This document shows, in pieces, positions 26,783 through 27,245 of a DNA stretch of 64,000 nucleotides; within the stretch, counting starts at the first letter, position 1, and every line of letters starts with the position of its first letter. The notes beneath the pieces were generated by a model, which searched no databases, was not told where the DNA came from, and saw nothing but the letters and a program-made list of their open reading frames with translations. A program made the translations under genes and the position numbers. Source of the DNA: Eledone cirrhosa (Eukaryota); assembly GCA_964016885.1 (NCBI GenBank), contig OZ024748.1:53754001-53818000 (forward strand), in the 5' to 3' direction.

Positions 26783-27245
26783 TACTAAGAGTGGGAAATA
26801 AAATTTTGTTTCATTTTTTCCGTTTATCGTTTTCGGTGCACCCGGCCGATTAACCCACTCGATATGCAAATTGGGCTACTCAGCCGTTAATATGCATAAG
26901 GTAAGTATATACGTTCAACAATCTGGCAGGAAGGTATACGTTGCTGATGATAGCTAATAAGCTTGAAACTAGTACAGCGTTCCTTTGTCAGTGTTGAACA
27001 AACGAGCAACGATGGTTGCTAGACACTACGGCTTAATACGGGATGTTTGTTTACAAACACACCGAGCATTATAATAAATGTTCGGTGAATCCATACGTAA
27101 ATATATATATGTGTGCATGTATGTATATATATATATATACATACTACTGTACGTCTGTATACATATATGTATGTACGTGTACATACTTATATTTAAGCAA
27201 CAGCCGTACTAAGAGTGGAAAATGAAATTTTGTTTCATTTTTTCC
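26783..27245 (+). mobile_element. Terminally redundant 424-bp-period element containing an intact hammerhead
   Basis: 39-bp direct repeats at 26783-26821 and 27207-27245; (TA)n on both sides. Confidence 0.78.
26938..26980 (+). ncRNA. Minimal type I hammerhead ribozyme, intact
   Basis: acgttg-CTGATGA-t-agct-aata-agct-t-GAAA-c-ta-G-TA-cagcgt. Stem I is 6 bp and stem III is the palindrome ACTAGT. Cleavage predicted after 26974. Confidence 0.87.

Follow-up and report, generated by a model that had tools for sequence, protein, structure and literature searches.

We found that a 424-nt hammerhead-bearing repeat of Eledone cirrhosa is, judged from its sequence and the form of its insertions, very probably (about 0.9) a non-LTR retrozyme mobilised by Penelope-like elements (PLEs), that is, a non-autonomous PLE. 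Its copies end at two fixed points like those of the Penelope-type elements of the same genome, and it therefore likely hitch-hikes on their copying enzyme. The class is already known; new here are the integration signature as evidence and a counted rule by which an inverted insertion joins one tailed (T) and one untailed (U) end. In the open literature (subscription papers and supplements lie outside this scope) we found no paper on the 424-nt family or on a counted T/U rule. Earlier arguments on how animal retrozymes enter DNA drew on co-occurrence and pseudo-LTR homology; here, at hundreds of loci, the footprint left by integration agrees with that of PLEs, with a coding PLE of the same genome for comparison. 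What we say of PMC7229834, PMC8557442, PMC3846280, PMC4209133, PMC6765202, a 2026 bioRxiv preprint, the Xenopus survey and plant LTR retrozymes refers to the accessible parts of those texts.

The 424-nt unit, its hammerhead ribozyme and its family

The window (the whole 64,000-nt stretch analysed) holds a direct copy of the unit with a T end, 5'-truncated within the upstream tail (Table 1). The unit begins at 26783, its first 45 nt recur after it, and the insertion ends in a TA run at about 27251, not at 27245 as the preliminary description had it. The 39-bp terminal direct repeats reported there are real: the repeats at 26783 and 27207 (spacing 424) are identical at 37/39 bases, and the match extends to 42/45. 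They had been taken as the signature of a circular template. The redundancy is instead a fixed Penelope-type tail (unit positions 414-469) combined with 5' truncation, and the copy shows a terminal repeat because the tail is seen twice after truncation just over one unit upstream. The TA flanks were correctly described, (TA)n lying on both sides of the insertion, and so was the lack of a credible ORF: across a real tandem array the longest ATG frames have 60 aa (+) and 52 aa (-). The unit has a GC content of 36.6%, and its predicted RNA fold is strongly self-paired (z is -9.75 over the full unit and -3.7 over positions 1-305, where the TA-rich part is excluded; the circular fold has -131.7 kcal/mol). 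It also carries an octamer, which we take to be a possible snRNA-type promoter element, compare newt satellite 2. With its single hammerhead, the window copy would therefore release no unit-length RNA by itself. On its own it is ordinary, and comparable 5'-truncated hammerhead ends occur throughout the window.

Table 1. Features of the retrozyme copy and its flanks, in window coordinates
Feature	Position	Strand	Remarks
Whole insertion	26783..27251	+	424-nt unit + 45 nt (unit positions 1-469)
5' copy of the tail's final 45 nt (left terminal repeat)	26783..26827	+	42/45 identical to 27207-27251
Octamer-like motif	26864..26871	+	In both lineages, 8/9 aligned copies; promoter role putative
Type I hammerhead with extended stem I	26913..26999	+	Motif scan, predicted fold, helix comparison
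Hammerhead core; stem II of 4 bp with flanking U.U, stem III palindromic	26944..26974	+	Predicted cut 26974/26975
10-bp hairpin, compensatory changes between lineages	27061..27086	+	5/10 pairs altered on both sides
TA/TG-rich part of unit, predicted long hairpin, length variable	27093..27187	+	
U site, end of untailed copies (unit ~406-413)	27188..27195	+	Presumed upstream RT start site
Tail, ~56 nt between U and T ends	27196..27251	+	T end ~27251, presumed downstream RT start site
Left flank, a TA-rich microsatellite as target (17-19-nt repeat followed by a TA run)	26558..26782		
Right flank, (TA)n target run	27252..27286		

Under a strict type I motif scan the window yields 8 matches, whereas locally shuffled windows average 0.017 and never exceed 1 in 60 shuffles. 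In the retrozyme the conserved core nucleotides and the NUH triplet are present, with a predicted cut at unit position 192/193, and the internal hammerhead first placed at 26938-26980 thus has a complete core. Its description as textbook goes too far. The closing pair G10.1-C11.1, called highly conserved in PMC4209133, is replaced by U10.1.U11.1, stem III is a 6-nt palindrome, and no Rfam family reaches its gathering score on the retrozyme sequence (22.5 bits for HH9, whose cut-off is 52, at E 0.005); miRNA matches at the E-value level in Rfam were dismissed as TA-repeat noise. The U.U recurs in the coding element PLE-A described below and in three further families from this genome, with stem II differing from family to family, and it therefore looks like a local variant, not decay. 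A short palindromic stem III is the form that requires a dimer (PMC4209133, PMC6765202), and the lowest-energy monomer fold is predicted to mispair the core.

Two young lineages, only 78% identical to each other, both retain the core. Among nine aligned copies, pairs changed on both sides number 5/10 in the hairpin and 1/28 in the ribozyme stems, a total of six that was reached in 0/500 shuffles. Five of these six lie outside the ribozyme, and one stem I pair is mismatched in 4/9 copies. The aligned copies are related and the structure is that of the window copy; the covariation is therefore support and not a probability. Two further candidates were discarded. Variation at N7 fails as proof of ribozyme selection because this is a CpG site and its base was fixed by one of the searches, and the covariation of unit positions 12 and 73 reflects a single subfamily split, other diagnostic sites being equally linked.

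Other hammerheads accompany it in the window. Ends of further families, 5'-truncated and set in TA runs, lie at 14886 (+), 53599 (-), 54453 (-) and 21230 (-), and all four of their ribozymes pass the strict scan; looser hammerhead-like cores at 14228 (-), 20419 (+), 23992 (-) and 35325 (-) fail the strict stem test. Another hammerhead family (V) forms short head-to-head inverted ends on both strands at 4555/4568 and 11795/11802; its ribozyme has the U.U and a longer stem III, and of the two ends in the 11.8-kb pair one is tailed and the other untailed. The window further contains a 50-bp tandem array (7613-8762, 23 copies, 97% alike), an exact 40-bp duplication (28307-28388) and two open frames (39164-39673 (-) and 33599-33925 (+)) that we take, by eye, to resemble C-terminal LINE reverse-transcriptase fragments.

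The repeat is anything but single-copy, which had been named as the finding that would speak against it, and the family runs to thousands of copies. A search of the 3.0-Gb genome with unit positions 1-293 gave 1,213 candidates, of which the 40 scored are 98-100% identical. A junction 31-mer has 4,880 exact matches and one 40-mer hammerhead variant has 244, with 0 for either reversed control; because the exact 31-mer occurs in 60/140 sampled junctions, we roughly estimate ~11,400 junctions in the genome. The search for tandem arrays proposed in the preliminary description found arrays of 424-nt period, one with ~21 units in 9.4 kb, and most sampled loci hold only 1-2 units. Being multi-copy, tandemly arrayed, non-coding and structured, with a type I hammerhead in each unit, the element keeps the retrozyme label it was first given, and the RNA of ~350-420 nt then expected should rather measure ~420-430 nt. 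Four sequencing runs of unrecorded kind, used as contigs, supplied unit variants and the lead to a sister lineage. The sister has a 460-nt unit, 78% identical to the first, with near-identical copies and its own arrays, and reads as very young; its loci, with arrays and inversions, include L346:511-970 and L343-L372. At L143 and G000:C1:49585300-49587856, arrays alternate two unit types (exact-motif spacing 842 nt) and may be higher-order repeats or dimer templates.

Insertion ends in the retrozyme and in coding PLEs

Across 131 independent loci, 3' ends fall at two fixed sites: U, at unit position ~406-413, and T, ~56 nt further on at position 45 of the next unit. The 5' ends vary. The copy had been called a circularly permuted monomer, which holds for the variable 5' ends and fails for the 3' ends, and a search for permuted copies likewise yields variable 5' ends with two fixed 3' ends and no random permutation. 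Both U and T ends usually abut (TA)n; these AT-rich or microsatellite targets were read by eye, and TA runs hide target-site duplications. In a set of 82 loci anchored on the hammerhead, 60 are head-to-head inversions and 22 are direct, and 20/22 of the direct loci end at T or U.

The inversions follow a near-strict rule. The 131 loci include 81 inverted insertions. Leaving aside 29 in which an end is cut or non-standard, 52 have two clean ends, and of these 51 are T/U, one is U/U and none is T/T (P 1.2e-14 against independent ends). In a fresh set of 30 loci all six clean inversions are T/U, a further five having been set aside, so that the pooled 424-nt family stands at 57/58 (P 2e-16 for independent ends). 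The 460-nt sister adds 8/8 clean T/U inversions among 20 loci. The U end of the sister lacks the TATA string, and therefore complementarity to the target alone does not set the U site.

The two arms of an inversion resemble each other more than chance allows. They are discordant at 103/1,023 diagnostic calls (10%) against 28.9% after shuffling (0/2,000 shuffles), and rare variants are common to both arms in 48/548 cases against 0.9%. Arm lengths are uncorrelated (rho 0.05), and the junctions show an overlap of 1-5 nt in 48/74. Only 19/51 inversions, those with one arm contained in the other, are compatible with simple fold-back copying. In 37/51 the U arm equals or exceeds the T arm in length (P 0.002), a bias that PLE-A does not share. 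This suggests, weakly, that the enzyme primed at U takes the lead, and the selection of loci may contribute to the bias.

At five loci (L008, L055, L135, L140 and L158) a retrozyme arm lies head-to-head with the end of another family without consistent T/U pairing. Twin priming across families was considered for such cases and set aside: the five abutting loci include two T/T pairs and a single clear T/U pair, and nesting plus deletion therefore suffices.

GIY-YIG searches of the genome gave 10,597 candidates, in which we recognised about eight PLE families by inspection. One of them, PLE-A, is young and has a 4,202-nt period, a hammerhead near its 3' end and an intact 775-aa frame with a reverse transcriptase (RT), a CxxC linker and, at the C-terminus, a GIY-YIG domain; by the linker criterion of PMC8557442 alone it appears Neptune- or Nematis-like. 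Its end motif has 3,981 exact matches in the genome. Like the retrozyme, PLE-A inserts in (TA)n and has a tail of 55-60 nt. Its inversions are T/U in 16/17 pairs, the remaining one having a non-standard end, and in 8/8 of an unselected set of 30 loci. Four other PLE families also have two ends one tail apart. Intact young PLE-A loci, with many near-identical full copies, are found at L223:5500-9161 and L225-L241. In PLE-A a 476-aa frame upstream overlaps the 775-aa RT frame, pointing to an intron or a frameshift, and in L223 both arms start at the hammerhead cut. Close to their 3' ends, families B and C (L273, L274, L281, L283, L290 and L294) have, on inspection by eye alone, what seem to be atypical minimal hammerheads whose stem III is palindromic.

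The footprint is shared without detectable shared sequence. Between the 424-nt unit and PLE-A there is no significant similarity, and 70 GIY-YIG loci, out of 150 listed among the 10,597 candidates and with some 3' ends outside the compared stretch, have only nested copies in common with it. No coding parent was found among 30 tail-anchored loci. All 100 listed matches, of 180, to a pattern with changed stem II are point variants of the 424-nt family. The retrozyme is joined to PLE coding sequence without a TA spacer at L191:918-1653 (-) and at the 5' junction of L037. In L191 the unit meets the PLE-A linker in mid-ORF through a 3-nt microhomology. Both joins are possible template switches, and for L191 a switch and a later deletion explain the join alike.

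Template, proposed mechanism and alternatives

The cut site is spanned by 260 segments, every one of them uninterrupted there, and 2/148 junction ends come within 3 nt of that point (2.4 expected); cut linear monomers are therefore not the main template. Retrozyme copies show no pile-up of 5' ends at the cut site. Of 140 clean arms, at loci partly selected for length, 69 exceed one unit. Adjacent units are identical at diagnostic sites in 37/58 pairs against 10.7% of random pairs, and four of the 58 pairs differ at three or more sites, which a monomer circle leaves unexplained. Within the tail, where one full turn of a circle would pile up 5' ends, they number 28 against 16-29 in other bins of equal width, no clear excess. 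A small excess of 5' ends at unit positions 128-130 (9/169; P 0.002 with a window of 3 nt and 0.05 with one of 5 nt) hints at some linear templates. PLE-A itself reads through its own hammerhead in 6/7 insertions longer than a unit. In its short copies, where direct ones were counted by arm start with flanks unchecked, ~15/30 arms start ~70 nt upstream of the hammerhead cut, both arms doing so in three inversions; this 5' end, shared by L243-L272, is a candidate pseudo-LTR start site or marks a short derivative family. A fixed 5' end is thus detectable in PLE-A and there is only a small excess in the retrozyme, which favours a template without ends.

The mechanism we propose, and hold to be somewhat better than an even bet in its full form from transcription through circle to twin priming, runs as follows. 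The 424-nt repeat is likely transcribed. Paired (dimeric) hammerheads would likely cut the multimeric transcript, which would be closed to a unit circle; this step is the least certain. A PLE protein, probably as a dimer, would bind the RNA at the tail and cut both target strands, and the borrowed Penelope RT-endonuclease would insert copies into (TA)n targets. One target end would prime at T and the other at U on a single source RNA, both cDNAs would run upstream past the cut site, often for more than one full unit, and after stopping they would be joined by microhomology. Direct copies, that of the window included, may have lost one arm or never made it. The integration steps are read from the insertion products. 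Such twin priming at the target is analogous to L1 twin priming.

The template is where the alternatives come closest. The preliminary description saw the copy as the cDNA of a ribozyme-processed circular RNA, and arms that exceed a unit and copying through the cut site agree with this, but an uncut multimer fits both nearly as well. A linear multimer transcribed from tandem arrays and inserted by the same PLE twin priming, with no circle and a hammerhead that is slow or acts elsewhere, is a strong competitor that we rate a little short of even odds. Long arrays are available as its source, the ribozyme is non-canonical, neighbouring units are discordant in some cases and two unit types alternate in certain arrays, and the weak 5' excess lies immediately upstream of the ribozyme; moreover, hammerhead mutants had no effect on insertion in vitro, where uncut RNA was the main substrate (PMC11167929). 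On the other side, the core is kept in two lineages that have diverged to 78% identity, and sampled loci mostly hold 1-2 units, yet arms are often longer than a unit and no 5' end dominates. Retrozymes of mussel, coral and axolotl accumulate as circles (PMC7229834), and partly for this reason we place the circle slightly ahead of the multimer as template.

Less weight falls on the remaining explanations. That the inversions and the one-ended tail stem from a DNA intermediate, a self-primed or fold-back cDNA resolved by endonuclease, we consider unlikely: PMC8557442 attributes the tail to endonuclease resolution, PMC3846280 proposes self-priming and a few junctions are symmetric, but the nested arms and correlated arm lengths that fold-back would leave are not what the inversions show (19/51; rho 0.05), and mapping in vitro placed two RT start sites at the bounds of the tail (PMC11167929). 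It is more improbable still that the copies derive, as 3' pseudo-LTR fragments, from a longer, unsampled coding PLE. Fixed 3' ends with 5' truncation are expected of such fragments, as the preliminary description had foreseen for pieces of a coding element, and both are found; in Xenopus 24/57 retrozyme families are homologous to Repbase elements, nearly all of them PLE termini, and L191 and L037 join a unit to PLE coding sequence. Upstream of a unit, however, lies another unit, an inverted arm or flank and no ORF, even in arrays of up to ~21 units; the unit shares no sequence with PLE-A or, nested copies aside, with the 70 GIY-YIG loci, and the L191 join is a microhomology in mid-ORF. Descent of the 424-nt unit from an extinct coding parent is nevertheless likely. 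The first literal model, of circle cDNAs with freely permuted ends made by an unspecified RT, accommodates the variable 5' ends, the internal cut site and copies longer than a unit, but is largely refuted by the confinement of 3' ends to two sites in the direct loci and in most inverted arms and by a T/U rule common to coding PLEs; we give it very little credence. Least credible of all is a satellite spread by recombination in which the ribozyme motif is incidental. Long tandem arrays do exist, and recombination may still explain their growth; for the dispersed copies it is refuted by their presence on many contigs, their fixed 3' ends, 5' truncation, inversions and TA targets, and by the compensatory changes in RNA helices.

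The PLE-mobilised reading can be taken further, tentatively and against the odds as we now see them. Each inverted Penelope-type insertion may be the work of one RT dimer that uses both start sites, one per strand, and the retrozyme may be a viroid-like circle without a surviving coding parent that captures this machinery by its tail structure alone, in two parallel lineages with U.U hammerheads. If this is true, strict T/U pairing is a genomic read-out of PLE reverse-transcriptase integration. The near-strict rule ties the RT start sites seen in vitro to real insertions and makes a sharp prediction for a transposition cycle that PLE papers call unresolved, and a young 424-nt RNA with an intact young PLE forms a small testable pair.

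Comparison with known systems

The non-LTR retrozymes of coral, mussel and axolotl have units of 150-450 nt and accumulate as linear and circular RNA (PMC7229834). The repeat described here resembles these metazoan elements in its short non-coding tandem units, type I hammerhead, low GC, self-paired RNA and the presence of PLEs in the same genome, and it shares a short palindromic stem III with the dimer-dependent amphibian ribozymes. It differs in units of 424 and 460 nt, at or above that range, and in the U.U at the base of stem II, and it is known here from sequence alone; fixed 3' ends, tails and inversions are absent from the accessible descriptions in PMC7229834. The 2026 preprint regards animal retrozymes as non-autonomous PLEs and reaches the same conclusion as we do, that retrozymes use PLE machinery. 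Its evidence, in the accessible text, is co-occurrence and pLTR homology, mostly in vertebrates, whereas ours is the integration signature, with no homology to a coding PLE detected. Plant LTR retrozymes are likewise non-autonomous hammerhead retroelements but, as far as their accessible descriptions go, have true LTRs that carry type III ribozymes, together with PBS/PPT and a 4-bp TSD; the 424-nt unit has one type I hammerhead per unit, outside the repeated end.

Among PLEs, the EN+ Neptune and Nematis elements (PMC8557442, PMC3846280) show the same 5' truncation, partial tandems, head-to-head inversion, tail at one end and microsatellite targets. Their tail measures 30-40 nt and is found at one end "often" or "optionally", in contrast to ~56 nt and a counted, near-strict T/U rule here, and the repeat described here has no ORF. 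The MRC1-type elements of Chlamys (PMC8557442) are also non-coding PLE derivatives with multicopy head-to-tail insertions, but as a rule their 3' sequence is shared with an autonomous family, and we found no such sharing among the loci compared here. The closest biochemical counterpart is PAc Poseidon of Anolis (PMC11167929), whose protein, predicted to form a dimer, cuts and extends both target strands in vitro. Its reverse transcription starts at two internal sites, the interval between them being the tail, and hammerhead cleavage is dispensable for this anole PLE in vitro. AT-rich targets and a hammerhead that is read through are features of the 424-nt family as well, and so, presumably, are two internal start sites that bound the tail. 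PAc Poseidon is, however, a coding element, and in vitro no difference between strands was seen in its start-site use, whereas the genomic inversions of E. cirrhosa pair one T with one U.
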